This document shows, piece by piece, positions 18,437 through 51,047 of a stretch of DNA of 64,000 bases (its first letter is position 1; every line of letters starts with the position of its first letter). The DNA comes from Heptranchias perlo (taxonomy: Eukaryota), in NCBI RefSeq assembly GCF_035084215.1, contig NC_090338.1:8866001-8930000 (forward strand), read 5' to 3'. The notes beneath the pieces were generated by a model, which worked only from the letters and a program-made list of their open reading frames with translations, was not told the DNA's origin and ran no database searches. The translations under genes and the position numbers were made by a program.

Positions 18437-18560
18437 CAGAAAATGCTTAAAGTGGACGTCAGGAGGGCTTACCGCTGAAAAATATTAAGTTAACTTTCAG
18501 CTGCTGATCCAGTGCACATTCAGCATTTTCTGTTTTTGCTTCATATTTCCAACATTCTAA
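18437..18560. repeat. PLE-derived inverted repeat downstream of donor 1
   Basis: Arms 18437-18457 and 18512-18532 are complementary at 18 of 21 positions. Confidence 0.7.
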
Positions 18561-19100
18561 AACTCGTTCTTTAACCAAAGGTTCAATACGTCGTGCTGAC
18601 CATACAGCGTTTCTTAGTTTACAAATCATTAGCATTTTCACTTCTTGAAATCGAGCAACGTACATTATGCATTGCTCAATCTCATAATCGCTGATTGAAC
18701 TAAGTTAGAATGACAATATGAATGAATATGATAACTCAGATGGTATATTGCAAAATAGCTACAATGTTTAAAAGTCTCATTTCACTAATACTTTAAAGTT
18801 TATGGACAAGTAATTATAGCGCCTTTGCTATAATTTTCAATTGAATACACTCAACCAAAAGCTTCAAATACCAATAAGAACAGCAGTCTTATAGAAATTA
18901 ATAGCGATCCCATGAGGAAGTTTAATGTAAAGAATCGTTGTGAATCTTAGTTTTGGTTTAGCAATCTCATCCTCAGATAAAAAATATAACAGAAGGCTTG
19001 CGTTTGGACTGTAATTTCTCATTTGCTAAAATGGCCGTTCTTTTTGTCTTCAGTGATCACGGTAAACATGCTTTGCTGATTGGGTAGAGCCCAATGTAAC

Positions 19101-19146
19101 GTCTAACTAATGACTTTTAAAGGGTCTAACTAATGACTTTTAAAGG
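19101..19146. repeat. Perfect 23-bp tandem duplication
   Basis: GTCTAACTAATGACTTTTAAAGG occurs twice in tandem. Confidence 0.95.
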
Positions 19147-22100
19147 GTTTTGAATTGACAGTACCAAGTGCTTGATCCATCTGTAATTGAAGTGCAGATC
19201 ACTTCTGATGCGCTCATGTTGTATTCGTTTCTCCTGCTGCGCACAGGAGAATTAGAAACGAGGATGTCAGATTCCTAGGAGGCAGCGCGCGCCCGAAGGC
19301 AGAGGCCCGAGGATGGCTATAAATTAGACGTCCGATCTTTTCTAAATATTCGGGCGATCTGACAGCGCATATCGCACTTCCACCACAGCTCGCAGGAGGG
19401 GAGGCTTCAATTTCATGCCTCCTGCTTCACCAGCTTATGGAAGGGGCCTAGCAATTATTTGCTTTGGCCACACTCACGCCTAAAAAAAATGGCCCAACCC
19501 AATTTCCAGTCAGATATTCTTCAGGCAAACTTGGGGCGCAGAACGATGCAACGTGAAATAAGTCTTCCTTGCTCCCATTTCAAACCCATAAAACAGGTGT
19601 AACAAGTACCAATTTCTACCTCTAGAATAGTAAGGCAAGATTCTCGGCAGGTGAAAGCTGGTAAAAAGGTATGGACATCGCCTAAGCCGAACTGCTTCCA
19701 ATGTGCTTGCAGGGACGATCAAAAAGGATGAGTCGGCAGAAGGACTGAAGGAATCAGGCCAAAAAATGAATGAAATTAACGCCAGCATTACCAGTAAGAT
19801 CAAATAATCATAAACTTTAAAAAGATAAAGATTATCTATTAGAATGCATAACCACAAATGCTAGAACCACTGGGAAGAAGATAACTTAATTGATTTTGGA
19901 AATTGGAAATTATGGTGTCATGGATTCTCAAAATGCAGATTACACCTGGTGATTAAAATAATTACATTATCCAAGAATTTTGAGTAGTCAGGAAAGAGGT
20001 TCTAGACAGGAAAGGATGTAACAAAGACACATGAGACACTTTGGTTTTAGGAAGAATAACCGTTCATAAAGATAATCATCTCAACAAGCTATTCTGGCTG
20101 CAAGTGGGTTGGGTAAAGGGAGAAAAACAATCTTTTATTTTCTGTACACCATAAGGTCAATAACAAAATAAAAGAAACTGGGTATTCTCTGAAGAAATCA
20201 GGAAGGTGTATGGAACTTGAAAAATATTAATAATGACGAAATGTAACCAACCTACTATGAAACAGTATGAACTAGTGCATACGGTCAACAATCTGAGATA
20301 GTATATGTGATATTTGTGATCCATTGTGTTAGGAATGCCAACGGAAGTAACTTGTAGCTCGACTTGGTAATAGAAAGCTGTCCAGTTATCACGTTGGGAT
20401 TGGTGGCCACACTGAGCAATGGCGACTATATTATAATTACATTTGAAAATACCCAACCTAATATTTGGACATACTATTTGTAATGGATCAACTTCAAAAG
20501 AATGAGAGGAGATCATAAATATTTGGACTGTTGGAGTGTTTTCTAGGAATCTTTAGTTGCGAATACAGTGAATGTATTTAAGAAGTATGTAAATAAATGC
20601 AAACCAAGAAACAATAAGCATAAATTAGCCAAGGCCTGAAATGGGATTTGCAAGTTAATATAAAGTGAGAGAACTATGAAAACCACACTCTACAAGTCCC
20701 ATGGGGAAAAATAAGGAAACATATTAGTAATAACGCTTATGGGGCGGAAGGTATTTCGCTGGGAACAATACATAAACCCCCAAAAGTATTTTTAAAAGGC
20801 GAGCAGGGGGGCATCAAGAGAACTATAAATGAGGATAGTAATAGACGCTAAACACAACAGTAAGAAATTGTTTCAGCATTATAGCATTACAGCTATTAAA
20901 GAAGATTGGATTCTTAAAGATGCAAGCCAGAACGAAAGTGAAGCCGAACTAAAAGTAACTAACATAATATGATATAACAGAGGTAGGCCATTCAACCCCT
21001 TGAGTCTGGTCCACCATTCAATTAGATCATGAGACCGGGACCATGTCTCTATGATAGCAGATCTTACGACAACATTTAATATATTTCATAACATTTCCAT
21101 ATTTAAAACAAATTAAAATCATTAAATCCTCTGCAACCGATTATATACGCCCGAACGTAATACGTGACTTGACAAAAGGTGGTTGTCACTTTTCTGGATT
21201 TTTGATCATTTTTTCCAAAGAGAGTAGTGGTCTAAAGGATAACTTTTAATGCTGGGATTTTTAAAACACTTTGAATTCTCACGAGTTGAAAAACGGAAGC
21301 ACCCAGATGAAAGGTGGTAAAAATGCTGAACAGAAGTTGCTTCTCTTACAGTGTACAAAATAGGCAAGTCGATAGCGTGTTTGGATAGTCAGAAAGACAC
21401 TTCTCAGCATTGTATTGGAAAGCCCTTTGACCTTTGTTGATATGCAAGAAGGGAGGCAGGCTTTTAGAACAGTGAAAGAGGTTTTAAAAATCAGAACACA
21501 CTGAGCAAAAAGCCAAGCAGACAGCAAAGTGCTATTAAAGGACAAAAAGACAAGAAGCTTCAGAGAGAAAGGCTGTGCCATGGGAGTGTAGGACAGACTT
21601 AGAGGGGGTCATACTGTTTAATATAAATCAATGCGTAGTATAACATCACGTGCTCAGTAACAGTATTATAGAATCAGAGATTTATTGTAGTCATATCTTT
21701 AGGGGAAGAAAAGGTCTGTCGATTGCGCTAAGTTAACGCTGTCATAAATATTACTCTGTACCATCACTGTGCGATAAAGTAGCTTACAGACTCGAACAAA
21801 GCTTGACCTCATTTAGCATTACATGGATCTGTCCCTAGAGAGATTGAAGAAATTCGATGCAAGAGATACACCTATCCGGACATGGTCACAAGGGGCTTTT
21901 GTTTTTACTCTCAGGGGTTATGTTATCGCACAAGATGGGCAATGTGAGACAACTGCCATAAAAGTAGATGCTGAGATCACTTAAGGGGACGAATGATGCC
22001 ATGAACCTGAACAGGTATCTATGGCAGGACCGAATTTGTAACAGTGATTATAATGATAGGGAGTCAATGAGTACAGATAAGATCCAACTAAATTGGAAAC

Positions 22101-22479
22101 AAGTGAACCAGGTACTTACTATCACAAAAGGTGACAATTCAACAAAATATATAACAACAAACCCATTGATCTAATATGGATTATTGGCAAAATAGTAGAA
22201 TTGATCATTAACACCATTACATAAGAAAATGGTGGTCGAGGATCAAGCCTGCTCCATCCAGAATCGAGATGTCAATATTCTATCATAGTTTTCTTTCCAT
22301 ACCACCTGTTGCTGAGCCAACTTTCAGGAATACTAATTTCATTTTTGTCTTCATTTAAATATAAAAGTACAATGTTTTCAAATATCTCTATGATCCTCCA
22401 TCCGTCTCCCCAACAAGTATCAATTCACACACTTGATCTAGTAAATGGCTTTAATTGGAATGGGTGAGGATCCTGACTG

Positions 22480-23580
22480 ACCTAATACGTAGAGTTTCCC
22501 AGTAGATGTTGGAATGCTTTGGGATATAGTGTACCTGGACTTCTAAAAATCATTTGGGAAAAACCCACATGAAAGCTAAGTAGTTGATTTACAAGGTGCA
22601 ACGTGGAATGAATAAAGGATGGTAAGTAGCAGTGTGAGTGAGGAAGTAATGTCAGATTGGGGAATCTGCCCCAGGGACTGGTGTTGGGCTTCCCATTGGT
22701 ATTAATCTAGGTGAACGACTTGGCTTCAGAAAAACTACGAAAACAGATTTGGCGGGTGATAGTAAATAGGGGGGAACAGTCGAATCTCATTAGGGAGCAA
22801 AAGAATCACAAAATGACCTAGAGACAATGTGTAAGTGGGCATGAATGTGGGTCATGAAGTTCAATACAGATAAACACAAAGTACTACATTCAGGAAGAAT
22901 GTTTGGGAGAAACACTTACTCAATAAATCATGTCCATATATCCAGGAGGGAAGCTGAAAGAGATCTGAGGGCGATGGCAGACTCAATACCCACCATGATC
23001 AATCAGTGCAGAGTGTAGTAATTAACAAAGTGAAGAGAGTTTTGTGTTATTTTGCAAAATCAGTATAGCAATATTCAGAGGCACATGATGAAGCTATATA
23101 CTTCTCTGCTTTAGATACATCTTGAGTAATGCGTTCAGATCTGATCCTGCGTTGCACATACTATGCACAGGAATAAATGCGGTGAACGTTTCTACCGCTG
23201 ATCCTTCGTTTTACAGGACTGACAAGTGAGGAAAAGTTAGTAAAACTTGGACTCTTAACCCCATAAAGGTGTGAATGAGAACGCACCTTGGGTGTATATA
23301 AAATATCAACCCAGGGCAGAAAATGACAACCCAGAGCATTATGTTGTATTAAAGATGACTTTAATACAAGATACATTTATACAAACTAATAAAAAGCAAG
23401 TTCAGGGCTAATTTCAGGAAGCACTAATGTAAAACGTGATTAGTAGCAGGAGTGGTCTTCTGGCAGGGTACTGTCCACAAAACTCTGTAATTATTCATGA
23501 TGGAACTAGAAGCTGTGACCCTATGTTGCTATGGAAGGATGTTCTGAAGGATGGGCCGAATGGTAACCCTCCCCTTTGCT
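22480..23580 (+). mobile_element. Old, heavily decayed CR1 LINE
   Basis: Remnants of YLDF, PQG, KFN.DK and HLE motifs, and a GATGGGCCGAATGG 3' tail. Confidence 0.6.
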
Positions 23581-24509
23581 TATCTTTGTGATCATCACCG
23601 CTGGGCTTTTGGTGACCTGTACTTAACTTTATCATCTTCATCTCTGGCTAGGTGCTCATGGAAAAGTGCCTGTTGTAGAATTTCTATAGCACGTTGCAGT
23701 CTGTAAATAATACTGTTTGACATTACAAATCAGCCACTAGAACATTTTTCAGGAAATCCTTACTCTATCCCCTTTGAACAATTTTGTTTTATTTTTGTGA
23801 TCCAGTGAAATGACTGATAAAATTCTAATGTGCACGGAGGTTTCATGCCCAGACTATCCTGACCAGCCATGTACAAGCTCTTGCCCTGCATCTTGTTTCA
23901 ACACTCCTTGCCCTTATGCAGGTAAATCTGTCTATTGCACCTTGTATTTTAATCAGAGTGAAGCATCCCAAGCCAAACGTATTTCTGTCGGTATCTTCTG
24001 AAAGTCCACAATTAGAGCTGCTGAACGTAAATTAATTGAAACAAAGTATGAACTGGCGTCCTCAGACTCTCTAATAGTGGTTCCTTCTTGTGCCTCTCCA
24101 AAGCGGGCTCTCCAGACGCCTGTTAATATCACTTCCATTCTTTTCCTTCTGTTTTATTAACAGCATTATTCGTTTCCTACCCCTCTCTTGAATTTGTTGA
24201 TTCCTTATTGGGATATCGTTGTGCGAATTTCAGTCGCCATCCTTTGCCTCGCACAAAATGTTATTTTTACCTGAGAGAAACGATGCCTGCTACCCTTCCA
24301 ATTATTTCGCTTCTGTTTGCATCATTATAATTTTGAAAACTATGTTAAGTCTTAAATTGCCCAACACATTGAAAGCTTTGACCAAGTTCATGATCGCCAG
24401 TATAGCTGTTGGAACGGGGCTTCTTCTGCTCACTTTTGCATGACATCTCTGTAAATTATCACTTCAAACTTTGATGTTCATTTGCAATATGCTTGGACAT
24501 TTCTGATGA

Positions 24510-24612
24510 AGTTCTAATGAAAGGTCGTCGATCTGAAACGTTAACTCTTTTTCTTTTTCCAGAGATGCTGCCTGACCTGCTCAGTATTTCTAGCATTTTC
24601 TGATTTTATTCC
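24510..24612 (+). mobile_element. PLE terminal-repeat remnant with mutated hammerhead core
   Basis: AGTT-CTAATGA-AAGGTCGTCGATCT-GAAACGTTAACT, same family as 13423. CUGA is changed to CUAA. Confidence 0.7.
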
Positions 24613-25918
24613 AAAGCATAGTGGCCTGGTAAACAAGTTAGGAGCTCCTACTAAAGGTTAGGCTCCTCTCAAATTGCGTGCCTGTTTGTGCCACAAAGAC
24701 TCCGAATTGAACTGGGCCCTGTTCTTTCAACAAATCACATCTTTATTCACACCTATTACTGTTTCAACTTATTATAACACCCTATCTACCGATGATTACA
24801 GTCCACATTAGACATTTTACTTCAGACCACGCGCTTTAGTGCTCTTTATTCAACATTGGAACATTTAGGCTAAAATGATGTTCCAGCTGTCTCATAACAG
24901 TATCTGTATAACAGCAGGAGCAGTTGGGACAACCATTTTTGCTTGTTGCTGCACCTCCCATGATCAAAAACAAAGCACCGTTGCACATGAATGCTTGAAT
25001 GCTTGGACAGAGCTTCACTGCCCTACTTTGTAATAAATTGCGATATAAATGTCGGCATAACATCGCTAAAAAGTTAAATGTCAGTTGACGACGTTATCAG
25101 AATGTCCAGTGGTCATTGTTAAATTATTGATTCACACATTTGGTACAAAGCACCAGAGTTGAGATTATACCTTCTACGTGTAACTTACAGCTCTCTACTG
25201 TTTAGTCCACTCAATAGTCAGGCCTGGCGCGAACCTTATATTGTGCAACCACATTATTTGATATGTACCTGAAGCCATTAGAACACCTATTTACGATTTA
25301 ATCTACTCTATGGATTCCTAGGAAGGAAATGATAATCTTGTTTATTTCAGTTTGTCAAACACAGAATTTCTGTGTGTCTCCCATGTGTAACCTATTGCTA
25401 CCATCTCGTTCTTTTGAAGGCTCCTCCCTTAGTGCGCCATTTTGCGACGTTATTGGCCCTATACTTTCTTTGATCTAAGATAGAACTCGAACAGTTCTTC
25501 AATTAATGCTGAATATGAAACCAATGCATCATTTGATGTTGCGTTAGGCCCATATCCTGTACTTGAAAAGATTTTCTCACATTGATCAAAAGTGAATCAA
25601 AATTCAAAGTTAAATTCGTTTGACCTTTTGAATTACTAAGTACGTATTCAACAACACTGATTTAGACTAGAAACACCCGCTTGTATTTACGATGTCATAG
25701 TTGCGTAGAAATTATTAAACCATAGTGTCTACAGATCATTCTGTGCGGGCCATATATGATTTCTATTGTACAGACAAAAGCTGTTACAGATATAAATATG
25801 GAATAGGAGAAAGATTTGTTGTCACTTCGGAAAATACAAAGATGACGGGAATTCAGTTACATCAAAATTCATGTATTCGTTCTGACTGACATTTTCAGTA
25901 GTCTGGCTTTACTGTGAT

Positions 25919-26025
25919 CTCAGTGTAGTTATAGGCTGAGACTCTTTGCGTCGCTGTCTACCAATAAGGTGATGAAATCTAGCCAGAGATCCACCACCCA
26001 TCCCCCCACATCAGGGGGAGGAAAC
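25919..26025 (+). promoter_or_regulatory. cPcdh promoter 2 (CSE, CGCT at 25952)
   Basis: Near-identical to promoter 1. CGCT is 238 bp upstream of the ATG. Confidence 0.9.
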
Positions 26026-26189
26026 CGACGCATTGCTGGCGCTTACGTGAACCAAACGAAACATCTCGTCGGCCGCTCTCCCAGCTTTCCAAACCATGTC
26101 CTGAATTATATCGTTTACTTGAGATGTAATTCAGGACATTAATCAACAGGAAGATTTACGAGCTTCGAAAATTTCACCCTGCAAAAGAA

Positions 26190-28682
26190 ATGTCACAATC
26201 AGACAAACATCTTAGCTGGATGCTGAGAAAGCCAGCGATACCAACCATCTTTGTGCTTTGTGTCTGGAATCTGGTTTCCGGGCAGATTCGTTACTCCATT
26301 CCCGAAGAACAAGAGTACGGTGCTTTCGTCGGAAAAATCGCTGAGGATTTGGGATTGAGCGTGGAGGAACTATCACGCCGTAGATTCAGGATTGTTTCTG
26401 ATTCACCAACACAATATTTAGATGTAAATCTAAAGAATGGAATCTTATTTGTGAATAAAAGAATAGACAGGGAACAACTCTGTGGACAGAGCCTTACCTG
26501 TTTACTGCCTTTGGAAGTGGTAATTGAAAATCCCGTCGAACAGTATCGTGCGGAAGTCGAGATTCTGGATATAAATGACAATTCTCCCGCTTTCCCGGTT
26601 AATGAAATCCGTTTGGAAATTCCAGAATTAGCGACACCTGGAGCGCGCTTTTTGTTACAGGACGCGCACGATCCTGACGTGCAAGTCAATTCCATTCGCA
26701 CATACCAGCTAACTCCGAACGACCATTTCGTTTTAGATGTGCAGAGTCGCGGGGAAACAAAATTGCCCGAATTGGTGCTGGAGAAGACGCTCGACCGAGA
26801 AAAACAATCCAGGCACCGGCTATTGCTCACAGCTCTTGACGGCGGATCTCCAGAGAGGACAGGTACTGCTCATGTAATTATTACTGTCTTGGACACTAAT
26901 GATAATGCACCGGTCTTTCAGCAGTCGTTGTACACTGTCAGTCTAATGGAAGATGTGCCATCGGGCACTTTGGTGATTAAACTTAACGCGACTGATTTGG
27001 ATGACGGGTCCAATAGTGACATCGTTTATTCCTTCAGTAGCTACACCAAAGAGAGGGCTCGTGAACTATTTAGCATTAATCCCTTTTCGGGGGAAATCAG
27101 ATTAAAGGGAATATTGGACTTTGAAGAAGCAAGTATTTATGAAATTTATGTGGAAGCTAAGGATAGGGGTTCACACCCAATATCCACGCACTGTACTGTT
27201 CAGGTGACTGTCAAGGATGTGAACGATAACGCTCCTAATGTCACTCTAAATTCTGTTGTTAAAGAAGTACGTGAGGATGCGTCGACTGGAACGTTGATAG
27301 CTTTAATCAATGTGAGAGATAGGGATTCCCATGAAAACGGGTATGTTGATTGCCAGATCTCGCCAAACCTCCCGTTTGTTCTGAAATCGTCCTTTAAGAA
27401 TTCATACAGATTGGTCTCAAATGATCTATTGGACCGGGAAAGTGCTCCTGAATACAAAATAACGGTTACGTGCAAGGACCGCGGGTCTCCTCCACTGACC
27501 ACCAACAAAACCCTAGTTGTACACATTTCAGATATAAACGACAACGCACCTAGCTTCCCGCTGTCTTCATACGCCGTTTATGTAATGGAAAACAATGCGC
27601 CCGGTAGTTCCATTGGGACAGTGACAGCTTTGGACGCTGACATGGACCAAAACTCCCACCTTTCTTACAGTATTCTGGAGAGCCACATGCAGGAGGCGCC
27701 AATGACTTCATATGTCTCCATCAACTCTGAAAATGGTGTCATCTATTCGCAGCGGACATTTGATTACGAGCAACTTAAAAGTTTTCAGATCCACATGCAA
27801 GCTCAAGATGCTGGAGTTCCACTACTTTCCAACAACGTTACCGTGAACGTGATTATCCTCGATCAGAATGACAACCCTCCTGTAATAACATCACCCGGGT
27901 CAATGAACCACAGCAAGATAGCTGTGCCTCGATCTGCAGATCCGGGATACCTGGCGACCAAAATAATTGCTTCCGATGCTGATTCCGGTCAGAATGCACG
28001 GCTTTTCTATCAGATTGCGCGAGCCACTGATCCCAGTCTTTTTACAGTTTCACATAATTCAGGAGAAGTTCGAACTGCTCGTCATTTTAAGAACAGTGAT
28101 GACACCACACAATGGCTCGTTATAAAGGTGAGAGACAATGGACATCCACCCCTCTCTGCCACGGCTACTGTTACGCTTACAGTAGGTGAACAGAACGCAG
28201 AAATTCCGTCAGACTTTGGTGATCCGCCCAAGGATTTACAACAATCTTCTGATTTAGCATTTTATATAATAATTCCTTTGGGGATGATATCATTCACACT
28301 TCTCGTTGTTATACTTGCCCTTGTTTTCGCCATTTGGCCAATTAACAGACGTCCTGCTTATGCTGGGAGTTGCGCCCTTGCTAAATGTTGCTGCGTCAGA
28401 GAGCTGGATTCCAAGGATAGATTACAAAATTCAAACGTCAACCTTCAGATTGTGCCCGATCCTAAAATGGTTGCAAATGTCCTTGAGGTACGAGGGAATG
28501 GATCTCTTTCAGATACATACCACTATAAAGTTCGCTCGGTGCCACAACGAGCTTCAAATGAGCCCATGTTTTTCACACCGTTCAGCCCAGCAACAACAGG
28601 AACTTATGGGAGGAATACCAGAAGAACTGTGTCAGAACGTTGTGGAAAAGTAACCAATAACTGGCCTGATAAAGCCTATGAG
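26190..28682 (+). CDS. Clustered protocadherin variable exon 2 (alpha-C2-like)
   Basis: Uninterrupted frame encoding signal peptide, six EC repeats, TM and cytoplasmic region. Donor GAG|GTGAGT at 28682, phase 0. Confidence 0.95.
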
Positions 28683-30499
28683 GTGAGTAAAATATATATT
28701 GAAGCAAAACAAAAACCTGCATAAAATTACATATTGTGGGAATGCACGGCTGTCGACGAGGATCGGAAACATGAGTTAACGACCAGATGCTGATCTACCT
28801 GTTGTGTTCTTCTAGGGTTTTCTGTGTTAAATTAATAATTCTCGCGTTCGAGGTTTTAGCTTTTACCACAAACCTCAATAATCCATGCTTTATTCTTCCA
28901 ATATAATAGTTTTGATTTGTTTACCAACTTAACTCACTTACAGTTGAAGCAATTTATAGAAATATATTACATTTCGTCATCTCGCAGCAATTGATCATAC
29001 TGTGAATGGTTGGACAAATGAATGAGCTAAGAGAAGTAAGCCAAGAGATAGATTATTTTAATTGGCAGCACTGTGTACAAAACTCATTTCATTAATTCTT
29101 AAGGAAGTAGTGACAAGAAATGTGTAGTAATCTGCAATACTTTTGCAATATCTGGCAATTGTCTATTGCAAACCAAAAGTCTCAAATACTAAGACGAGCC
29201 AACAGCTTGTGTAGTATCCAGCAGATTTGCTTAGTACTAAGGACATCTAAACTGTGGTATTATAATTTTCTAGTAATCCCGTCTTTAAAATAAATATAAT
29301 TGAAAAAAACATCATATCAGCGCTAGCTTCCCCTCTGATGAACTCGTCGTTTCTGGTGTTCCTTATATTAACAGGTGTTCCATGCTGCTGATGAGACACA
29401 ATGATCTGAGGTCTTTTGTTCCTATGAGTTAACTTGAACACCTTATAAATCTTGCTACCCTTTTCATTGCGCCACCAGTTAAATCTATTAAAGTCTTCAA
29501 TCTCTCATTCAAAACTGATGCCAACTCCTACTCTGTTTTCTCAGCTTATGACCTTTGTAACCTCGGTGGTACCTATCTCTGACAGAATACACCGAAATCA
29601 ATCATTTTCTGAAAATAAAACCAGTCTTATTTGACACTATAAATCATCTGGCTGCGTTGGTCTTCAAGATTTATTTCCTCTATTTCCATGGTCCGCCTTT
29701 GTTTTTACTTTTCTACTTCCTGTCAGTGGATCTTAGGTCAATATTTCCTATTTATCGATCTTTTGAACATTCTATGTATCACGCCTACCGTCTTTGGTAA
29801 GCATTCTGTGTACGAAACCGGCAACTTAATCAGTATGAAGCATCTCAAGCCAACTTCATCCTGACTGGTAACTTCTGTAAGTTCACTATTGGAGTGCTCG
29901 GCCTTTATTCAAAGGAAATGCACAAGTGGCTTTCTTCCTGTCCCTCCAACATTCATTCCTTTCAACGAAAGCTGCGTCAAATTATACCATACCTGTTTTC
30001 CCCCAATTGAGATCAACACAGACCAGGGATCGAACCTGGCACCTTCTTGATCTGTACAGCTGACCTAAGCTCTATGTTAACCAAATCAGTTACCAAGGGA
30101 CCCGTTAATCTTTCATACGGACGTTTCATTTTCTAGGTTTCCTAAAATGAAAGTTGATCTTTCATTACTTTCCCTCCCCTTTTTCGAATGTTGGTAATGT
30201 AGGTAAAGACATTTCATCAATTGTTTCTTTCTATCGTAGCACTGTGATCCACATCACATTTTGCCCTGCCAAGCCTATTGGATCATCAACCCCCTGTTGT
30301 CCATAAGGCTTCTGGACCTGATGGCATCCTTTATGTTGTAGTAATGAAATGTGTATTTTAACTTGCCCAGTCCCATACCATTTCTTCCATCTTTCATTCT
30401 CAGTCCATATTCCTGTGTTGGTTCTTTTATACATTCTATGTATGACACCTACCGTCTAGCAAGCATGTTGTGCATGTGGAGGAGGCATAATCTTAACAT

Positions 30500-35840: not shown

Positions 35841-35996
35841 CAGAAAGAATGATGGCGTTTATACGAACGCCTTCTCCTCAGAAGATGCTTTCGTTTTTCA
35901 GGTCATTCCCCACATTGAATGATTTACTTGGGATGTGATGCAGAACGTGAAGCAAAAGAATTTTTGAGGTTTGAAACAATCTTCCATGCAAAAGAA

Positions 35997-38459
35997 ATGA
36001 CACAATCGAGCAGTCTCTGGGTGCTGAGAAAACCAGCGATATCATCCATCTTTCTGCTTTGTGCCTGGAATCTGGTTTCCGGACAGATTCGTTACTCCAT
36101 TCCCGAAGAACTAGAACACGGTGCTTTTGTCGGAAAAATCGCAAAAGATTTGGGTTTGGACGTGGAGGAACTATCACGCCGTAGATTCAGAATCGTATCT
36201 GCATCGTCAATACAATATTTGGATGCAAATCGCATGAATGGAATTTTATTTGTGAATAAGAGAATAGACAGGGAACAACTCTGTGGGCACAGTCTTACCT
36301 GTTTACTGGCTTTGGAAGTGATAGTTGAAAATCCCGTGGAGCAGTACCGTGTGGAAGTTGAGATTCTAGATGTAAACGATAACTCTCCGAGTTTTCCGAA
36401 TAGTGAAATTCATTTGGAAATTGCAGAATCAGCGATGCCTGGAGCGCGTTTCCTCTTAGAGCGCGCACACGATTCTGACCGAGGAAACAATTCTATCCGC
36501 ACATATCAGCTCACTGCAAATGAACATTTTACTTTAGATATACAGACTCGTGGAAAATGGAAATTACCCGAGTTAGTGCTGGAGAACTTCCTCGACCGGG
36601 AAAAACAATCAAGGCACCGTTTATCAATAACAGCGCTTGACGGTGGAACTCCAGAGAGGTCAGGTACTGCACACATAACTATTATTATCTTGGACACAAA
36701 TGATAATGCTCCTGTTTTCCAGCAATCGTTGTACACTGTCAGTTTAATGGAAGATGTGCCACCGGACACTTTGGTGATTAAACTTAACGCGACTGATTTG
36801 GATGAGGGGCCTAATGGTGAGATAGTTTATTCTTTTAGTAGTTACAATGAGGAAGGAATATCTGAAATGTTTAGGATTAATCCCATATCCGGCGAGATCC
36901 AAGTAAAGGGAGTATTGGATTTTGAGAAAGCGAATGTTTATGAGATTGATGTGGAAGCTAAGGACAGAAGTGCACAACCTTTATCTACACACTGTAACAT
37001 CCGAGTGGAGATCAAAGATGTCAATGACAATGCTCCTGATTTGATTGTAAACTCAATTTACGGTACAATCAGTGAGGACGTTCCGACTGGGACTGTGATA
37101 GCTTTGATCAGTGTATCAGACCGGGATTCTAATAGAAACGGATATACCGATTGCTCGATCTCTCCAAATGCTCCCTTTGATCTAAAATCTTCCTTTAGAA
37201 ATTCATACAGACTCGTCACCAATGCTGTACTGGACCGGGAAAGCGCTCCTCAATATAAAATAACTATCACATGTAAGGACCGTGGATCCCTTCCATTATC
37301 CACGAAAAAAACTGTCGTTGTGCATATTTCAGATATAAATGACAATGCGCCACGCTTTACACAAACTTCATACACAGCCTATGTGACGGAAAACAATGCG
37401 CCTGGCAGTTCTATTGGATCGGTGACAGCTTTAGATCCTGACATGGACCGAAATTCACAACTTTCTTACACTATTGTGGAGAACCAGGTTCAAGCAGTAC
37501 CGGTGTCTTCATATGTCTATATCAACCCGGATAATGGCACTATCTATTCGAAGCGGCAATTTGATTACGAGCATCTTAAAAGTTTTCAGTTCCACGTTCG
37601 AGCTCAAGATGCTGGATCACCATCACTTTCGAGCAATGTTGCTGTGAATGTGATTGTCCTCGATCAAAATGACAATCCTCCTGTTATAATATTACCTGGA
37701 TCAAAAAACCATACCAATTCAAATGTGCCTCGATCTGCAGATCCTGGATATTTGGCAACAAAGATCATTGCTTCGGATGTTGATACTGGTCAGAATGCAC
37801 GACTTTTCTATCAGGTTATACAATCCAGTGACCCAGGCCTTTTTACAGTTTCACATAATTCAGGAGAAGTAAGAAGTGTTCGGCGATTTAAAGATAGCGA
37901 CGCCACCATACAAAGGCTAATTATCCAGGTGAAAGACAACGGACATCCAGCCCTTTCTGCCACGACGACTGTTACGCTGACAATAGTCGAAGAGAACGCA
38001 GACATTCTACCGGACTTTAGTGAGCCGCACCAGGATTTACAAGACTCGCAGAGATTAACCTTTTACGTAATAATTTCTTTGGGCGCAACATCGTTTATTC
38101 TGCTAGTGGTTATAATTGTCCTTGTTGTCGCAATTTGCCCAACGGGCAGAGGCCCTGCTTCTGGGCAGGTTTGCTCTCTTGCTAATTGTTGCTGCACCAG
38201 AGAATCGGAATATCGGAATTCAAATGTCAATCTTCAAATTGTGCCGGATTCCCAGTTCATTCCAAATATTCTCGAGGTTCGTGGAAATGGATCCCTTTCA
38301 GAAACCTACCGTTATAAAATTCGATCGGCACCGGAGCCGGGTGAAATGTTTTTCACTCCATTCAGCCCGCAAATGTCGGCAACTATTGGAAAGAACATTA
38401 GCTATGTGTCGCAGCAGACTGGGAAGCCGAAAAGCAACTGGCCCGATGTACCCAATGAG
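35997..38459 (+). CDS. Clustered protocadherin variable exon 3 (alpha-C2-like)
   Basis: Same architecture as exons 1-2. Start context TGCAAAAGAAATG is shared with paralogs (upstream in-frame ATG at 35919). Donor GAG|GTGAGT at 38459. Confidence 0.95.
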
Positions 38460-38494
38460 GTGAGTAGTGTAGACACAAGAGATCACCTCAATGG

Positions 38495-38625
38495 TAAAAC
38501 AAAAAATGCTGGAAAAGCAAAGCTAACCCGCTGGCACAGACAGAAGCACACTGTAACTTTCACAAACCGATCTACCTTTGTGCACTTCCAGCATTTTCTG
38601 TATTTATTTCATATTTCCAGCATTT
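38495..38625. repeat. PLE-derived inverted repeat downstream of donor 3
   Basis: AAAATGCTGGAA (38503-38514) and TTCCAGCATTTT (38586-38597) form a perfect 12-bp stem that extends imperfectly. Confidence 0.75.
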
Positions 38626-39624
38626 GAGTTCTTTTTTAAGCAAATCTCTAGAAATATCATAATCGTATCTGCCAAAATGGATGATTTGCTTTTATTACAA
38701 AATATACTGATTTCACTTGATGTAATCTACCAATATGTAATACGTTAACATTACTCCATTTTGTAATAAGTGAAATTAAAGTGAAACTTTCGGAACCTGT
38801 ATGAGTAAAACGAAGTGGGCAAGGGAAAGTTGATGTTGCACCATTAACGGTTCCGTCTTTCTGATTTATTTTTATATGATACAATAGTTGTTCTTTTCTG
38901 GAACTGGAGCTATACCAGCGGAATATAACAAATATTGTGTAGCTTACACAACACGCAGCATTACTAAGGTTTTTATTTCGCACATGAGCCCAAAAATCAG
39001 AGAGCTGAAGGGGAGCACAGAATGTTTAGAACTCTTTCAGTCCTTCGTGTCATACACTAATGGAAACGCATCTAATACATGTAACGATTACCTGTATGAT
39101 TACACAGCAGGGGGTTCAACGCATTTAGTTACCCAGAGAGACGGTTGTTCAGTTATTTCATCTCTTGGCATTACAATTACTTGGGCAATCGACCATGAAC
39201 ACAAATCTGCCTGTGACGTATAAAATGACAACCCTCGACTCTTTAGGTTTCGCTTCTTTTCAAGCTGTCATTGGGAAATTTGATAGGACTGGACGTTTCT
39301 TTCATGCACTGAACTTTCCGAAATTTGCTATACACATTTTGACCCGGAGCAACACCTGCAGACATCCACGCAGCAAGGCTTCTTTGATTGTAAAATTTCC
39401 TACTGTTCAGGCCATCTTGCAGCTTACAGCGAAGGGTTGTCCCTCGTTAGAGCTGATGGCTGCCAAAAGTTGCTCAACAATGACAACATTCCTGTTATAA
39501 TTCAATGAACTCCTTGCTTTCTGGTTGTTTGCAAGAAGTTAGCCGTTCCGTTGTCTATGAGAATCAAAATGTGCCTAAATGTGTCATTCTTGAAAACAAC
39601 ATGCAGTGAGTCAGAGAGTTTCGC

Positions 39625-41386: not shown

Positions 41387-42105
41387 ACAAAGAGATCTAG
41401 GAGTACAGATTCATAGCTCCTTGAAAGTGGAGTCACAGGTGGATAGGGTGGTGAAGAAGGCATTCAGCATGCTTGGTTTCATTGGTCAGAACATTGAATG
41501 CAGGAGTTGGGATGTCTTGTTGAAGTTGTACAGGGCATTGGTGAGGCCACACTTGGAGTACTGTGTACAGTTCTGGTCACCCTATTATAGAAAGGATATT
41601 ATTAAACTAGAAAGAGTGCAGAAAAGATTTACTAGGATGCTACCGGGACTTGATGGTTTGACTTACAGGGAGAGGTTAGACAGACTGGGACTTTATTCCC
41701 TGGAGAGTAGGAGGTTAAGAGGTGATCTTATAGAAGTCTATAAAATAATGAGGGGCATAGATAAGGTCGATAGTCAAAATCTTTTCCCAAAGGTAGGGGA
41801 GTCTATAACGAGGGGGCACAGATTTAAGGTGCGAGGGGAGAGATACAAAAGGATCCAGAGGGGCAATTTTTTCACTCAAAGGGTGGTGAGTGTCTGGAAC
41901 GAGCTGCCAGAGGCAGTAGTAGAGGCGGGTACAATTTTGTCTTTTAAAAAGCATTTGGACAGTTACATGGGGAAGATGGGTATCGAGGGATATGGGCCAA
42001 GTGCAGGCAATTGGGACTAGCTTAGTGGTATAAACTGGGCGACATGGACATGTTGGGCCGAAGGGCCTGTTTCCATGTTGTAACTTCTATGATTCTATGA
42101 TTCTT
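41387..42105 (+). mobile_element. Young 5'-truncated CR1 (HER1-like) LINE
   Basis: Stop-free 199-codon ORF2 C-terminus (LYRALVRPHLEYCVQFWSP, LERVQKRFTRM, RLRGDLIEVYKIM) and a (TTCTATGA)n tail. Confidence 0.92.
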
Positions 42106-42959
42106 CTATGTATTTTATCTTCAAATTGTTTAACCTCCTTTAAAACACATCCTGTCCAGGTCTTGAATATTGTTCGTCTATCTAGGCCATCTCTTCTACA
42201 ACCTCTCTCACTCCTTGGCAGGTTATAAAAAATACGTAATTTCGACAATTTAACTCAGGTTAAATTAGATACCTGCTGCCTTCGGACATATCCAATTGTC
42301 ATGCATGGTGAAAAATCTTGCGCACGAGAGGCTTTGCTTGCCTTTTTGGTTATGGATCTGTGTGGGTGAAATATGAAGCTTTTGCTTTCCTTTTTATGCC
42401 TCCAGATCAGTTGTCTGTACCTATATTCAATTATTGTACCCAGCCTCACAATTTATACCTAGCGTTCATACTTCATAACGCTGGTTTCATATGCTTTAGA
42501 GGTACATTGTTATACGATATAGCTTGATAGATGTATGAGTCAATTTTACGTTAGTCATGGCTTTTTTTTGCAACCCCTCCAAATGATGATTCTGATTATG
42601 CAGGGGTGACTGGAAAACCTAGTCTACGACGTGGAAATTGGATGTTTAGAACATCATGGTAGCTTGCACATTGTGTTATGTGTTGCTTGCATCCTTAAAC
42701 AATGTTGACGACAAATGTTTCGGATATAACTATACATAAATCGTGGAACTGCAGCAGCTGAAAGCTATAACTAGCTGGTCGAGCATGCGAATACACACAT
42801 ATCTCCAGGGTTTAGGGCCTAACAGATACTGCTGAAACACAGCATTTCGATCTAGTTGAACTAAGAGTCGATGTTGTGTAGTGGCTATTCTATGATCAGG
42901 ACGAAGGCGTCAAAGACGTTCTGCTGGTGAAGAGCTTCTGATACATATTGCTCAAATAA

Positions 42960-45485
42960 CGATGGCTAAAACGCACGTTCATCAGTTTTCCAATGACTAT
43001 AATATAGTGGCAATAACAGAGACCTGGCTCAACGAAGGGGAAAATTGGGTACTTAATATTCCTGGCTGCAAAGTATTCATGAAATATAGTGAAGGAAAGA
43101 AAGGAGGGGCGGGGGCGTTGGCAGTATTGATCAAATAAACTATTATAGCACTGGAAATGGATGATGTAGTTGAGGAGTCAAAGACAGAATCTATTTGGTT
43201 AGAATTAAGGAAAAATAGAGGAGCTATTATGCTACTGGGTGTACACTATAGGCCAAAATTAGTGGGAAGGAGATAGAGGAGAAATTTACAGGCAAATTAC
43301 AGAAAGGTGCAAGAACTATAGAGTAGTGATAATGGGGGACTACAATTATCCCAATATAGACTGGTACACTAACAGTGCAAAGGGCAAAGAGGGGGAGGAA
43401 TGCCTGAAAAGTGTTCAAGAGAACTTTCTGGAACAGTATATTTCCAGTGAAACAGGAAGGAAGCAGTGCTGGATCTAGTTCTGGGGAATGAAATGGGGCA
43501 GGTGGACCATGTTTCAGTAGCAGAGATTTGGGGGACAGTGATCATAATATCATTAGGTTTAGAATAGTTATGGAAAAGAACAAGGAAAAATCAAATGTGA
43601 AAATGTTTAACTGGAGGAGGACACATTTCAGTGAGTTAAAAAGGGATCTTGCCCAGTTGGATTGGAATCAAAAATTGCTCAGCCAAACAATAATTGAACA
43701 ATGGGAGGACTTCAAGGAAGAGTTGGTTCAGGTACAGAGTAGACGCATCCCTATGAGGGGGGGGGGGAGGAATGGCATCCAAAACTAGAACTCCCTGGAT
43801 GACAAAAGATATAGAGATTAAAATGAAACAGAAAAATGAGGCTTATGACGAATGTAAGGTTCATAATAGAAAAGAGAACCAGGATGAATGCAGACAGTAC
43901 AGAGGAGATCTAAAAGGGGGATTAAGGGGGGCAAAGAGACTGGATAAGAATAGATTAGTGGCTAACATAAAAGGGAACATAAAAGTCTTTTATAAACATA
44001 TAAATATTAAAATGGTAATCAAAGGAAGGGTGGGATCGATTCAGGACAAAAAAAGGTGATCTTCTTGTGGAGGCAGAGATCTCGGCTGAGGTACTAAATT
44101 AATACTTCACAACCTTTATCACCAGAGAAGAGGATGCTGACATCATAGCAATAAAGGAGGAGATAGTAGCGATGTTGGATAGGACAAAAATAGATAAACA
44201 GGAGGTATTTAAATGATTGGCAGTACTCAAAGTAGAAAAGTCACCCGGTTCAAATGGGATGCATCCTAGGTTACTGAAGGAAGTAAGGGTGGAAATTGTA
44301 AAATTGCAGCAGCTCTGGCCACAATCTACCAATCCTCCTTAGATATGGGAATGGTACTGGAGGAATGGAGGATTGGAAATCTTTCACTGCTGTTTAAAAG
44401 GGGGAGAGGGATAAACCCGGCAATTACAAGCCAATCAGCTTAACATCGATGGTATGGAAACTTTTAGAGACAATAATCCAGGACAAAATTAATTGGTACT
44501 TGGAAAAGTAAGGGCTAATAGATGAAAGTCAGCACTTATTTGTTAAAGGAAAATCGTATTTGACTAACTTGATTGAGTTATTTGATGAAGTAATGGAGAG
44601 GGTTGATGAGGGTAATGTGGTTGATGTTTTGTATATGGACTTTGAAAAGGCATTTGATGAAGTACCACGTAATAGACTTGTTAGAACAATTAATGCCCAT
44701 GGGATTAAAGAGATTGTGGCAGCGTGGATACAAATTTGGCTAGGGGACAGAAAGCTGAGTGTAGTGGTGAACAGTTGTCTTTCAGACTGGAGAGAAGTAT
44801 ATAGCGGTGTTCTCCAGGGGTCAGTATTAGGACCACTGCTCTTTTTGATATATATTAATGACCTGGACTTGTATACAGAGGGTATAATTTCAAATGCAGA
44901 TGATATGAAACTTGGAAAAGTAGTAAACAATTTGGAGGATAGTAACAGACTTCAGGAGGACATGGACAGATGGTGAAATGGGCATACACATGGCAGGTGA
45001 AATTTAATGCAGAGAAGTGTGAATTGATACTTTTTGGTTGGAAGAATCAGGAGAGGCAATATAAACTAAATTTTACAATTTTAAACATGGTGCAGGAACA
45101 GGAAGACCCGGGGGTGCATATACACAAATCATTGAAGGTGGCAGGACAACTTGAGATAGCAGTTAAAAAAACATATGGGACCCTGCGTTTTATTAATAGT
45201 AGCAGATGGGTCGGTCACCAGAGGACACGGATTTAAGGTGAACGGCAAAAGAATCAGAGGCGATATGAGGAAACATGGGTTGCTGAAACAGATTCAATAA
45301 TAACTTTCAAAGGGGAATTAGATAAATACTTGAAGGAGAAAGAATTACAGGCCTATGGGGAAAGAACAGGAGAATGGGACTAATTGGATAGCTCTTTCAA
45401 AGAGCCGGCACAGGCAGGATGGCTGAATGGCCTCCTACTATGCTGTACCTACTATGATGAATATTAGTAATGTGATACTATGATA
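42960..45485 (+). mobile_element. Long decayed CR1 LINE ORF2 (APE endonuclease and RT) with 3' tail
   Basis: ITETWL, GVHYRP, MGDYN, LDLVL and SDHN (endonuclease). YMDFEKAFD, GVLQGSVLGPLLF and ADD (RT). Many frameshifts. Confidence 0.92.
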
Positions 45486-48151
45486 AGTGACTATCATTCT
45501 TGGGAAGTTTGTCTAGTCTTTTTGGCGTCAATGTGACTCCACGCTGGCAATTTTGTTGATCCAAGTAAACCTGCTTTAGCAGCCTTTGTAATCTAATATC
45601 TGATACACGCAAGTCCACAGATGTTCAGGGCACTCTTGACTATTAAGCAGCCAGCCTGGTTAACTAATGCATCCTGGATAGGTAATCTTGTTACTGCAGG
45701 CTCGGATTATTTCCACTCAGCTCCCTATAACCCTAAAAGCCATTGTTTCTGTGGGTAGGGTGGTCGTGGATGGACAAGTTGTGGGCAACAGATCAATAAT
45801 CTGTGTTAGTTTCCCACGCGACCTTACTTGATCAAGCTCAGTGCTGGTGCATTTAATTGGGAGCCGCAAATCCGTGGCTTTTGCCAACTAATGCCTAAGC
45901 TTTCTGGACACAAATAAATGAGAAGTGCCCCTACAGAAGAGACTGTATATTCCATATGGGAAAAACAGAGTATCCACCTGTCAGGATTTCTCAGTAGCTC
46001 AGATTTCACACTCTTAAATGTGGGTTCCGTATATGCACGTGGCAAATATCTACCTCACCAAAGAGAATGAAATGTTGTTCTCTCCACATCCACCAATTTC
46101 TCCTATTTATTAACTGGCGGCTTTCTTTGAAAGTTACCCGGATCTATAAATTCTAAACCCACAGACGCAGATACCGAGTTATCAGAAAAACTCAAGATGA
46201 GAATATAGTTTGGGATGAGGAAGCCTCGTCACCCGGTTTGATTTTGTCCGTTGAGAATTCCATTCATACCATTTCTCTATTGTAGCATTTATTTATTCCT
46301 TAAATGAGCAACGTGTCAAGCATTCTGCCTACCAACATCTTCAGCTGCTGATCACCCCCTGTGTAAATACACATTTCGTAATATCTACCCTAATATGCAT
46401 GCACAAACCCGAAGCTGTGCGTTCTTGTTCTGCTGCCGTGATGAATCTGAAAATATTGTTCCAATTTTAGAGGGGCATTATCAGCTAAACATCATAATCA
46501 TGTTCGAGATTGAAGAAAACCCATTACCAATGTGATTGGGAGATCTACTGCTCTCCCATGGCATTACACATCGTACGTCAGATGATATACTGCATAAAAT
46601 GCCCATATTATACTATGTCATCCTGATTGTATAATTGTGCTACTAGGATGAAGCTATGACCCTTAAGGATAAAGTGCTTAATTGTTGGTAAGTAAAAACT
46701 AGGTAAGATCAAGAGTTCAATTCCTCTTAAGGCTGCAGGACACGACTCTGACTTTCATTCTTTTGTAAAGTACTTTTGAGAATATCAAACAGAAATTATA
46801 GACACAATAGTTTCTATTTCCGAAGACCAGTTTTGCTTTTCAGTTTGACTGCAAAAGTCACTCAGAGGATACAAATAATCTGGTACCTGTGTCAAATTAC
46901 TCTTTTTGTTCATAGCGTTTCCTTGAAGAATACTACAGAGATTTGAGTGTAACCCATGAAATGTCTTAAACAACTGTCACTGACCAGAAACGAGAAGTGT
47001 AATGGACAGAAAATGAATGGGTGTTATATTTCAGGGACAGAAAAAGAAAGACAGAGATAGGGAGGTTTGCATTAAGGCATCTCCTTCAACAAGTTACAGG
47101 ATATTCTTTCCTTGTCGTCTTGTGTTGCTTTTTCTCACTCTCTCAATATTGTCCTTTTTTCTCTGTCCGCATTTTTTTCTACCTCGCGTTGTCTTCTTTT
47201 TTGATTATCCATTTATCTTCTTCGCTCTTTTTTTGGCTTCTATCTCTTTATTTTCTTTTGCCTTTTCCCTCTTCATTTGCCAGGGGAGGTGTGGGCATTT
47301 GAAGAACCAAACACCAGTCAGTGGGCAGTAATTGTGGAAGCAATCTGCCAGAGCTACAGACCAGAAGGTGGTTTTCAAGCAGCAAGTGGCAGTTGGGAAG
47401 TCGGAGGACTTATTAAACCCAGAGGCCTCAGTTTGGAGTGACGCGTGCGGGCACCATTCGAAAGGGGATACCTATGGCAAAGGAAACTGAACGACAATTA
47501 GGATAGAGGGGTATTGGGCCCACAGATTACATTTCGCAGTGCGGCTGTGGACTGCCGGTCGGGCTAGGAATGGGCCGAGGACAGCACCTCATCATACCAG
47601 AGGGAGCAATGCAACGTGAAGAGACTGATACTATGGGACATAGCAGCGCAGCGCTACCACACTTGGAGATGCAAATTTAGACAGGTAAGAAGACTGAAAG
47701 GCAAGTACAATGCAAGTACATGGAAATTAAAACTCACCAGATTAAACCTAATCGAAGGTATGACATCCAGGAGTGGTGGAAATGGTGTGATATGACATTC
47801 CTGTAAATACAGGAAGTGTCTGTTATACCTAAAAAACGTATATAATGTAGAATTGTTTCTGTTTTCCTCGAAAGTATTTAGACCAAGAGCAAAGTACAGC
47901 TTGAAAAACTGTACTAGCTGGCAAGAACAAGGCATTTTGGATGGGTGCAAAAATAATTTGCATGATATCAACAATAGATGCTGCAAATCTACTTTGAAGT
48001 TATTTACTTGCCGTCACTGAGGTAAGTATTAAAATAGTATCCACGCCGTTGCTAGATTTTTTTTAATGCTAGGTGCATTCTGAAATTCCTTTAATAATGT
48101 CCAGAAAGTTGAGACTTTCACAATGTATGTGAAGTCTAGCTTTAATATGAC

Positions 48152-48255
48152 CTCAGTGTAGTTATAGTCAAAGACTCTTTGTGTCGCTGTCTACCAATAA
48201 GGGAAAGAAATTTAGCGAGAGATCCACCACCCATCCCCCAACACCAAGGGGCGAA
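48152..48255 (+). promoter_or_regulatory. cPcdh promoter 4 (CSE, CGCT at 48185)
   Basis: CTCAGTGTAGTTATAG...AGACTCTTTGTGTCGCTGTCTACCAAT...GATCCACCACCCATCCCCC. Confidence 0.9.
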
Positions 48256-48423
48256 AGCAGGCAGATTATTGACGTTCAAATGAACGCACCGAGCTATCTC
48301 CTGAGAAGGTATCCTTGCTTTTCAACCTACCTCCTGCATTATATGACTTACTTGAGATGGAATGATTGATATTAACGGACAGAAGAAATAATGAGGGTCG
48401 AAAAACACATTCCTGCAAAGGAA

Positions 48424-50910
48424 ATGACACATGCAGACGGGCTCTTTTTGTTGAGAAAGAAAGCGGTACCGTCCATTTTGCTGCTGTGTGCCTGGAATCT
48501 GGTTTCCGGGCAGACTCGTTACTCCATTCCAGAAGAATTGGAACACGGTGCCTTGGTAGGGAAAATCGCAAAAGATTTGGAATTAAATTTAGAGGAACTA
48601 TCAGCTCGTAGATTCAGGATCGTTTCACAAGCACCAATGCAATATTTCGATATAAATCTCCAGAATGGATTCTTATTTGTGAATAAAAGAATAGACAGAG
48701 AAGCGCTCTGTGGACAGAGTCTTACCTGTTTACTGCCTTTGGAATTGGAAATTGAAAATCCTGTGGAACAGTATCGAGCAGAGGTCGAGATTTTGGATAT
48801 AAACGATAATTCTCCCAATTTCTCGAACAGAGAAATCCGTTTGGAAATTGCGGAGTCGGCGACACCTGGAACCCGATTTACTTTACAGGCCGCGCAGGAT
48901 CCTGACGTAGGAAACAATTCTATACGAATTTACCGGCTCACGTCAAATGAACACTTCGTTTTACATGTACAGACACTTGGAAAATGGAAAATACCCGAAT
49001 TGGTGGTGAAACAGTCTCTCGACCGAGAAAAACAATCGTCGCACCGTTTATTGCTCACTGCTGTTGACGGTGGGATACCCGAGAGGTCAGGTACTGCTCA
49101 GTTAACTATCATTGTCTCGGACACGAATGACAATGCACCGGTTTTCCAACAGTCCTTGTACACTGCTAGTTTAATGGAAGATGCCACACCTGGTACTTTG
49201 GTGATTAAACTTAACGCGACTGATTTGGATGATGGGTCCAATGGTGACATCGTTTATTCTTTAGGTAGCTACAATGAGGAAAGAATACCTGAAGTGTTTA
49301 GAATTAATCCGAAGTCCGGAGAGATCAGGGTAAAGGAAATATTGGATTTTGAAGAAAAAAGTGTTTATGAAATTCACGTGGAAGCGAAGGACAGGGGGGC
49401 ACAGTCATTATCCGCACACTGTATTGTTCGGGTAGATATCAAGGATGTTAATGACAATGCGCCAGAATTGATTCTAAAATCAGTATCCACTACAATCAGT
49501 GAGGACGCTCCTACTGGGACATTGGTAGCTTTGGTCAGTGTTACAGATCGGGACTCAAATGAAAACGAACGTACTGATTGTTATATCTCCCCACACGTCC
49601 CCTTCGATCTGAAACCCACCTTTAGGAATTCATATAGATTGATCATAAGTGGTCTACTTGATCGGGAAAGTGCCTCTGAATACGCGGTAACTGTAACATG
49701 TAAAGACCAGGGAAGCCCTCCACTATCCACCAACAAAACGATTGTTGTGCATATTTCAGATATAAATGACAACGCGCCACGCTTTACACAGTCTTCATAC
49801 ACAGTCTACGTGACCGAGAACAATTCACCTGGTAATTCCATTGGATCAGTGACAGCGTTTGATCCAGACACGGAACATAATTCCCAACTCTCTTACACAA
49901 TTCTGGAAAGCAATGTTCAGGGAGATCCAGTGTCCTCATATGTTTCTATCAATTCAGAAAATGGCATCATCTATTCGAAGCGGTCATTTGATTACGAGCA
50001 GCTTAAAAGTTTTAAGATCCGAGTTCAAGCTCAAGATGCGGGGTTCCCATTGCTTTCCGGGAACGTAACTGTAAATGTGATTATCCTCGATCAGAATGAC
50101 AACGCTCCTGTAATGATATCACCTAGATTAGCGGACTACAACAAGACAACTGTGCCTCGATCTGCAGATCCAGGATTTTTGGTAACGAAAATAATTGCTT
50201 CGGATGCTGATTCTGGTCAGAATGCACGGATTTCCTATCAACTCGTTCAAGCCACTGACCCGGGTCTTTTTACAGTTTCACGTAGTTCAGGCGAAATAAG
50301 AAGCTTTCGCCGATTTAAAGATGGTGACGCCACCACACAAAGAATAGTCATCCAGGTAAAGGACAATGGACACCCGCCTCTCTCTACCACTACCACGGTT
50401 ACGCTCACAATAATTGAACAGAGTGCAGAAATTCGGTCAGAGGTTGGCGATCTTCACTCAGATTTACAACACTCTTCCGATTTGGCATTTTATATAATAA
50501 TTTCTTTGGGAATAATATCGTTATTACTTCTTGTTATTATAATTGGCCTTGTCATTGCCATTTGCCCAACCGATCGACATTTTGGTCACACTGGGCGATG
50601 CTTTCTTGCCAATTCTTGCTGTGTCAGAGAGATGGACTCCAAACCTAGAATGCATAATTCGCATGTCAACCTTCAGATTGTGCCAGACTCCAATTTAATT
50701 ACGAACTTCCTTGAGGTTCGAGGGAACGGATCCCTTTCAGAAACATACCGTTATAAAGTACGTTCAGCACCAGAGGCAGCCAAAATGGAATTGATGTATT
50801 TCGCTCCAGTCAGTCCAACAACTTCTGGAACGTTTAGGAAGAATATCAGAACATGTGCGTCAGAACAGAATGCAGACATAAGGAGCAACTGGCCATATAT
50901 ATCCAGCGAA
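48424..50910 (+). CDS. Clustered protocadherin variable exon 4 (alpha-C2-like)
   Basis: Same architecture. Alternative in-frame ATG at 48391. Donor GAA|GTGAGT at 50910, phase 0. Confidence 0.95.
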
Positions 50911-50934
50911 GTGAGTATTATAATTTAATCAAAG

Positions 50935-51047
50935 AAAACAAAAAAAGTTGGAAACGCACAGCGTGTGGACCAACATCTGTAAGAGTCAGGTAGCTTATTT
51001 TGCAAGTGCTAATCCACCAGTTTTTCATTTCCAACATTTTCTGTTTT
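50935..51047. repeat. PLE-derived inverted repeat downstream of donor 4
   Basis: Arms 50935-50956 and 51026-51047 are complementary at 19 of 22 positions. Confidence 0.75.

Follow-up and report, generated by a model that had tools for sequence, protein, structure and literature searches.

For the clustered protocadherins, which serve cell adhesion in the brain, the mechanism described in the consulted portion of PMC7811963 is promoter activation and choice with cis-splicing. The cartilaginous-fish cluster is laid out in the order delta, epsilon, mu and nu (PMC2764143, citing Yu et al. 2008), and the excerpted account of the mu subcluster given there mentions no intronic repeat or structure. 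In Dscam1 and sDscam, the tandem 5' variable cassettes share intronic elements capable of pairing; these pairings are long-range or intermolecular and were tested by disruptive and compensatory mutations, according to the available part of PMC9258826; the same part notes no apparent intermolecular pairing between Pcdh transcripts. Among mobile elements, a minimal hammerhead motif is expected in the terminal repeats of Penelope-like elements (PLEs), as stated in an excerpt of PMC4209133, and typical features of PLE insertions, according to the part of PMC8557442 consulted, are inverted 5'-truncated copies together with a one-sided tail.

The DNA analyzed here, called the window, is a stretch of 64,000 nt from Heptranchias perlo (NC_090338.1, positions 8,866,001 to 8,930,000 of the forward strand), and coordinates below are those of the window unless the contig is named. 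Five long open frames on its + strand are protocadherin variable exons (Pfam was run on two of them), and a protein search of the H. perlo genome returned 83 matches, 82 of which lay on NC_090338.1 between 7.69 and 9.50 Mb. From the stretches fetched, 71 frames of at least 500 aa were recovered, and 42 of the 71 finish at a phase-0 GTRAG donor; this 42-donor test set omits the other 29 frames, mostly belonging to an upstream exon block having no such donor, as well as broken exons. The window falls in the third block of the cluster, which comprises 8 intact variable exons with its own three constant exons (NC_090338.1:8964509, 8967190 and 9095000). Elephant shark Protocadherin mu5 (P0012) groups inside the clade formed by exons 1-4, and the host block is, judged from sequence, the mu subcluster of the clustered protocadherins, an assignment in agreement with the delta-epsilon-mu-nu layout. 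The position as third block, the exon complement and the placement of mu5 are the features that the locus shares with the mu subcluster as excerpted in PMC2764143.

All five variable exons are on the + strand. Exons 1 (15886..18408) and 2 (26130..28682) are open up to their donors, and exons 3 (35919..38459) and 4 (48376..50910) each encode Cadherin_2, five Cadherin stretches and Cadherin_C_2. The predicted donors all read GTGAGT, at 18409..18414 (phase 0, homologous to the junction in full-length relatives), 28683..28688, 38460..38465 and 50911..50916; they are supported by full-length relatives that join the same position to constant exon 1, as does the annotated full-length model P0008 at the exon 4 donor. 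Exon 5 (57853..60303, donor at 60304) falls outside the exon 1-4 clade and served as an internal control. Several other features of the cluster were observed. Upstream of exon 1, a broken variable exon at 7751-9718 has about 50% identity to exon 1, its matching parts being distributed over several frames and interrupted by in-frame stops. Constant exons 2 and 3 are separated by an intron of approximately 128 kb (NC_090338.1:8967279-9095000), compared to one of 2.6 kb separating constant exons 1 and 2. Two near-identical variable exons at NC_090338.1:9298937 and 9316089, with 17 kb from one to the other and branch lengths of 0.011 and 0.027, represent either a recent duplication or an assembly duplicate. 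A long inverted repeat at 61507-62169, with 177-nt arms (80%) plus inner 37-nt arms, overlaps the ORF at 61207-61827, which resembles a LINE remnant.

Examination of the sequence behind the donors revealed inverted PLE-end remnants, none assigned to a strand, following exon 1 (18434..18560, with best-paired arms 18437-18457 and 18512-18532 and then an unpaired tail), exon 3 (38496..38626, with arms 38496-38519 and 38581-38604 and an unpaired tail at 38610-38626) and exon 4 (50934..51055, with arms 50935-50956 and 51026-51047). Arm complementarity was 18/21, 20/24 and 19/22, respectively, and the best inverted-repeat scores of 12, 13 and 14 exceeded shuffle maxima of 9-10. Folding z-scores were -4.5, -3.0 and -2.9, and the predicted arm pairing probability was 0.75-0.85 in these three exons. 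The remnant following exon 2 (28723..28850, likewise without strand, left arm ~28723-28747 and right arm ~28804-28830) is decayed and folds no better than shuffles, its hairpin being at chance level with an inverted-repeat score of 6, a folding z of +0.5 to +1.5 and 8-9 of 12 positions paired without gaps. The first arm begins 29, 24, 37 and 25 nt into the introns of exons 1 to 4, the exon 2 value being that of the start noted earlier. An inverted repeat 24-36 nt past each donor, as claimed in the earlier note, is thus present for exons 1, 3 and 4, and is at chance level for exon 2. That note also took the loops to have diverged, which is only partly so: the loop is more element sequence that includes inner arms, whose pairing is still 27-58% in the profile alignment and 52-59% in the direct one. 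Neither the inverted-repeat scan nor the repeat-end profile detected an element behind the exon 5 donor. One other donor among the 42 (NC_090338.1:9239333, in the nu block) is followed from +16 to +46 by an unrelated, short, perfect 14-bp hairpin of equal score, and two further donors fold at z near -2.8, so that exons 1-4 are not alone in having structure downstream of the donor.

The sequence behind these donors had further properties. The exon 3 frame continues for 55 codons beyond the donor, through the whole hairpin, to a stop (38460-38627), and an unspliced transcript would therefore translate the transposon remnant; the frames of exons 1, 2 and 4 reach a stop within 5-13 codons past the donor. 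In one putative RNA run, an unspliced 174-nt contig covers 38447 to 38620 at a depth of 2.3. This contig could stem from DNA or from pre-mRNA and carries no weight in the readings below, and the matches listed for that run included neither a joint nor a loose end at the exon 3 donor. The exon 4 right arm (51026-51056) ends in a pyrimidine tract and CAG, like a 3' splice site approximately 145 nt behind the donor, and exons 1-3 have no AG at the matching position.

The free copies reported earlier near 13500 and 24590 are present, the second at 24587, as free single PLE ends on the + strand (13427..13523 and 24503..24613). Both carry a hammerhead-like core, CTGACGA...GAAA in the former and CTGATGA...GAAA in the latter; in the window no Rfam family reached gathering score, the free copy gave only chance-level Rfam matches, and monomer folding was unremarkable. 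At least 1291 candidate relatives of the free copy at 13.4 kb were found in the genome. In two of these loci, L002 and L011, the repeat closes a 1.2 kb stretch common to both, and ~180 nt upstream of the repeat end, L011:776-1321 encodes a GIY-YIG domain (PF01541, 23.7 bits against a cut-off of 22.6). The other three of the four element ORFs scanned gave no domain match, and no reverse transcriptase match was found in these loci, which reach approximately 1.2 kb into the element. The Penelope-derived origin proposed in the earlier note is supported by the GIY-YIG ORF upstream in the fuller copy, and the repeat can be classed, on the basis of the element sequences compared, as the end of a Penelope-like retroelement. 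In that ORF, in the inverted arrangement and in the one-sided tail, the copies studied here are like the EN+ PLE ends covered in the excerpt of PMC8557442, and the free ends carry a putative counterpart of the PLE hammerhead motif. Unlike those PLE copies, the donor remnants are about 130 nt long, have neither ORF nor hammerhead core, and were probably multiplied by host exon duplication instead of by their own transposition.

The inverted form is common. The genome contains 118 hairpins of approximately 85-115 nt with exact 15-nt arms, compared to 0 for a reversed-pattern control, and palindromic copies were present at loci L003 and L010, with a tandem copy at L009. The copies that best match the exon 3 right arm are members of an older subfamily, several of them occurring as hairpins at unrelated sites; in one of these, at L143, the outer arms are kept and the inner arms lost. 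Old copies were sampled as the first 90 listed of 908 carrying a 17-nt old-subfamily motif that lies outside the arms, and an inverted partner was found in 21 or 26 of those 90, depending on threshold. These counts and the consulted description in PMC8557442 indicate that the hairpin is a routine product of the element; as inverted ends are a native PLE product, the existence of the stem-loop does not require exaptation. When close relatives of the exon 4 hairpin were sought, in a search that skipped very common words, only 2 weak partial matches came up besides the hairpin itself. A discrete MITE-like family sharing the internal join was also considered and was not found in this weak search.

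In a tree of 69 proteins, exons 1-4 form a clade with an SH-aLRT support of 100. The repeat-end profile matched 4 of the 42 donors, exactly those of exons 1-4 (4 of 8 in the subcluster), and the remaining 38 were without it. The four remnants share a common position and a common internal join of left-arm to right-arm sequence. The clade and the restriction of the element to its donors fit one insertion duplicated with the exon, and the earlier proposal of a single ancestral insertion is supported by the clade, the position and the join. Orthologues of exons 3 and 4 were found in both sharks and rays, which places the exon duplications before the shark-ray split and would place the insertion there too. 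Over 464 kb, the profile gave 15 matches in all, with 10 copies outside the four hairpins, a density at which an insertion near some donor of the cluster would not be very unlikely. A related species spans the exon 3 stretch in one contig with 216-222 differences in ~1800 nt (~12%), and a 1-nt insertion was called in its exon 3 left arm in one of two runs. At the level of protein, which provides a hint only, the read-through of the sawshark exon 1 orthologue P0010 resembles the left arm with differences, and none of three left-arm readings occurred in the 22 read-through codons of the manta exon 3 orthologue P0005.

The compensatory changes claimed for exons 2 and 4 were then considered. Over 4 x 20 outer columns we counted a single both-side change, C-G to U-A in exon 4 (GTTGG/CCAAC), compared to chance expectations of 0.85 from control spectra and 1.5-4.1 from simulation. 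The change itself is real; G>A is the commonest change at that column in free copies (7/72 right arms and 3/26 left arms). The exon 2 pair AAAACC/GGTTTT is out of register, since 28706-17 aligns with the flank preceding the exon 1 arm and the homologous left arm lies at ~28723-47, so that flank sequence had been paired with the decayed right arm. G-U pairs made up 7/17 of the non-Watson-Crick cells, compared to 29/115 in controls. With both-side changes at chance level, compensatory evolution is not supported, at the low power afforded by only four paralogues.

Between the paralogues, K2P at four-fold sites was 0.58-0.67. Total arm pairing was 104 of 184 pairs over 46 arm columns in the four hairpins and fits neutral decay, lying within the simulated 86-121 of 184 obtained over 18 parameter sets (P of at least the observed value, 0.02 to 1.0). 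Outer-arm pairing of 13, 12, 17 and 16 of 20 in exons 1 to 4 was likewise within the control range of 0.69 +/- 0.14 (P 0.28). The inner arms were better paired in the control hairpins (0.67-0.71) than in the exons (0.44-0.57), and the controls are therefore probably younger. Outer arms were better paired than inner ones: profile alignment put the outer-minus-inner contrast at 0.28 (P <=0.002 when indels were left out of the model, and likewise when the window was chosen post hoc), and direct alignment put it at 0.19 (P 0.005-0.013, indels included). An alignment artefact accounts for the inner-arm loss only in part, as the contrast dropped between the two without vanishing. Against 26-33 real hairpins, the contrast gave a Mann-Whitney P of ~0.02, and 2, 11, 2 and 4 of 26 controls reached the values of the four exons. 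The caveats on this contrast lean both ways: the four copies are related by descent, the outer/inner boundary was picked from these same sequences, the spread among real hairpins (sd 0.17-0.18) exceeds that among simulated ones (0.13), and the control hairpins, some truncated in one arm, were required to have a detectable left arm.

The conservation was unequal between the arms. Nine substitutions were counted in 78 cells of the right outer arm, compared to 15.7-18.7 expected (P 0.004-0.035), and 13 in 77 cells of the left outer arm (P 0.08-0.28). Among the paralogues, the right arm is the best-kept block of post-donor intron, at 0.75, with unpaired intron beyond it reaching no more than 0.65, and the right-side block from approximately +93 to +160 is kept at 0.61-0.75. 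In exons 1 and 3 the excess also takes in the tail that is unpaired, which it does not in the other two; from exon 1 to exon 4, identity to the old-copy motif is 13/17, 10/17, 16/17 and 7/17. The comparison of the arms with neutral copies, run on the four paralogues, thus bears out a modest conservation excess in the outer arms and no excess of covariation; the small size of the former leaves room for weak selection.

We consider it probable that the four stem-loops are a co-duplicated Penelope hairpin fossil decaying near-neutrally and having no role in splicing. A PLE end in inverted form would have inserted once into the intron that follows an ancestral mu-type exon, approximately 25 nt past its donor, with arms of ~46-50 bp that were presumably fully paired at insertion. 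Tandem duplication of that exon would have carried the remnant along to give four copies, which would then have decayed at a near-neutral rate and would play no part in splicing, and the ~20-bp stems of today would be the least-decayed portion of the longer original arms. This reading is favored by exon 2, in which the stem has decayed to chance while the open frame stays intact. Counting against it are the better pairing of outer than inner arms, the right-arm excess, and the unbroken exon 3 stretch of the related species.

A rival reading is partial exaptation: the ~20-bp outer stem would form co-transcriptionally at 25-140 nt from the donor and would tune donor recognition or local RNA processing, with weak purifying selection maintaining it in exons 1, 3 and 4 after its loss in exon 2. 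The contrast exceeds neutral models, the arms of those three exons are predicted to pair with high probability, and the duplications are older than the shark-ray split, yet three stems persist. Such an exaptation nonetheless appears unlikely, since there is no excess of both-side or G-U-preserving changes, the excess lies mainly on one arm, the copies are non-independent with a boundary chosen from the same data, and the scatter of real hairpins goes beyond that simulated. Predicted donor accessibility also had no shared shift, being 0.34, 0.23, 0.21 and 0.57 for the four donors compared to 0.32 +/- 0.11 for all 42, and 38 of these donors do without the element. A selected stem should be symmetric and the excess is right-sided, so that patchy rates, a sequence element or conversion fit at least as well as structure. 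U-rich enhancers of donor sites are known. It is a further, rather improbable explanation that the right arm is kept as sequence, namely a pyrimidine-rich tract, or is renewed by conversion, either with the abundant family or with the opposite arm, and that the stem survives as a by-product. The right-sided excess that runs into unpaired sequence in exons 3 and 1, and the conserved right-side block, speak for it, but in exons 2 and 4 that tail is decayed. A further point in its favor is a young-looking, perfect 24-bp inverted repeat with a 10-nt loop at 51368-51425, ~460 nt behind the exon 4 donor, which demonstrates palindrome-making events in the same intron; arm-to-arm events should, however, yield several both-side changes, and 1 was seen.

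Action at a distance, by docking to the constant region or Dscam-like cross-pairing, or an early transcript end by ribozyme or polyadenylation, makes up the last set of rival readings, and we regard these as very improbable. The repeat-end profile placed no element copy near constant exon 1, its closest matches outside the four hairpins being ~20 kb upstream and ~75 kb downstream. Five of six arms paired with the 2 kb before constant exon 1 within the shuffle range, and the sixth, the exon 1 right arm, just beat 30 shuffles of that sequence (-22.0 against a minimum of -21.0), which together do not bear out long-range docking. The suggestion that arms of different exons could cross-pair holds energetically for exons 1 and 3, whose cross duplexes of -23.3 and -19.8 kcal/mol are about as stable as the local ones of -23.6 and -22.1; this capacity follows from common descent, and it competes with a partner 60-70 nt away. 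Premature termination found no footing near the four donors, as neither strand of the 200 nt that follow each of them contained a CTGANGA hammerhead core, and no AATAAA or ATTAAA hexamer lay within 300 nt, whereas 15 of the 42 donors have such a hexamer within 200 nt. Like the Dscam elements covered in the excerpt of PMC9258826, the shark stems are intronic elements with the capacity to pair that recur among tandem 5' variable cassettes. They differ from the Dscam elements in that their pairing is local, confined to one clade (4 of 42 donors), accompanied by no covariation excess, and lacking a partner near the constant exon.

A literature search, which most subscription papers and supplements lay beyond, yielded no published description of this insertion, no work joining shark, Penelope, exaptation, hairpin and intron, and, among the matches listed, no paper whose title points to RNA structure at the protocadherin donors of sharks. 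The insertion itself is newly found; the kind of thing it is, a PLE hairpin, is already known. We view as doubtful the broader proposition that a Penelope hairpin was domesticated before the shark-ray split as a donor-proximal stem marking one mu clade and tuning splicing to constant exons 48-80 kb away; if true, it would add a transposon-born layer of RNA structure atop promoter choice in a vertebrate clustered protocadherin. Should the residual conservation reflect selection on the stem, RNA structure would be acting at clustered protocadherin donors, and a case of PLE exaptation would be added. As a probable fossil, the insertion is of use as a phylogenetic marker, in that one event would tag the four-exon mu clade and provide four natural replicates of a decaying hairpin.
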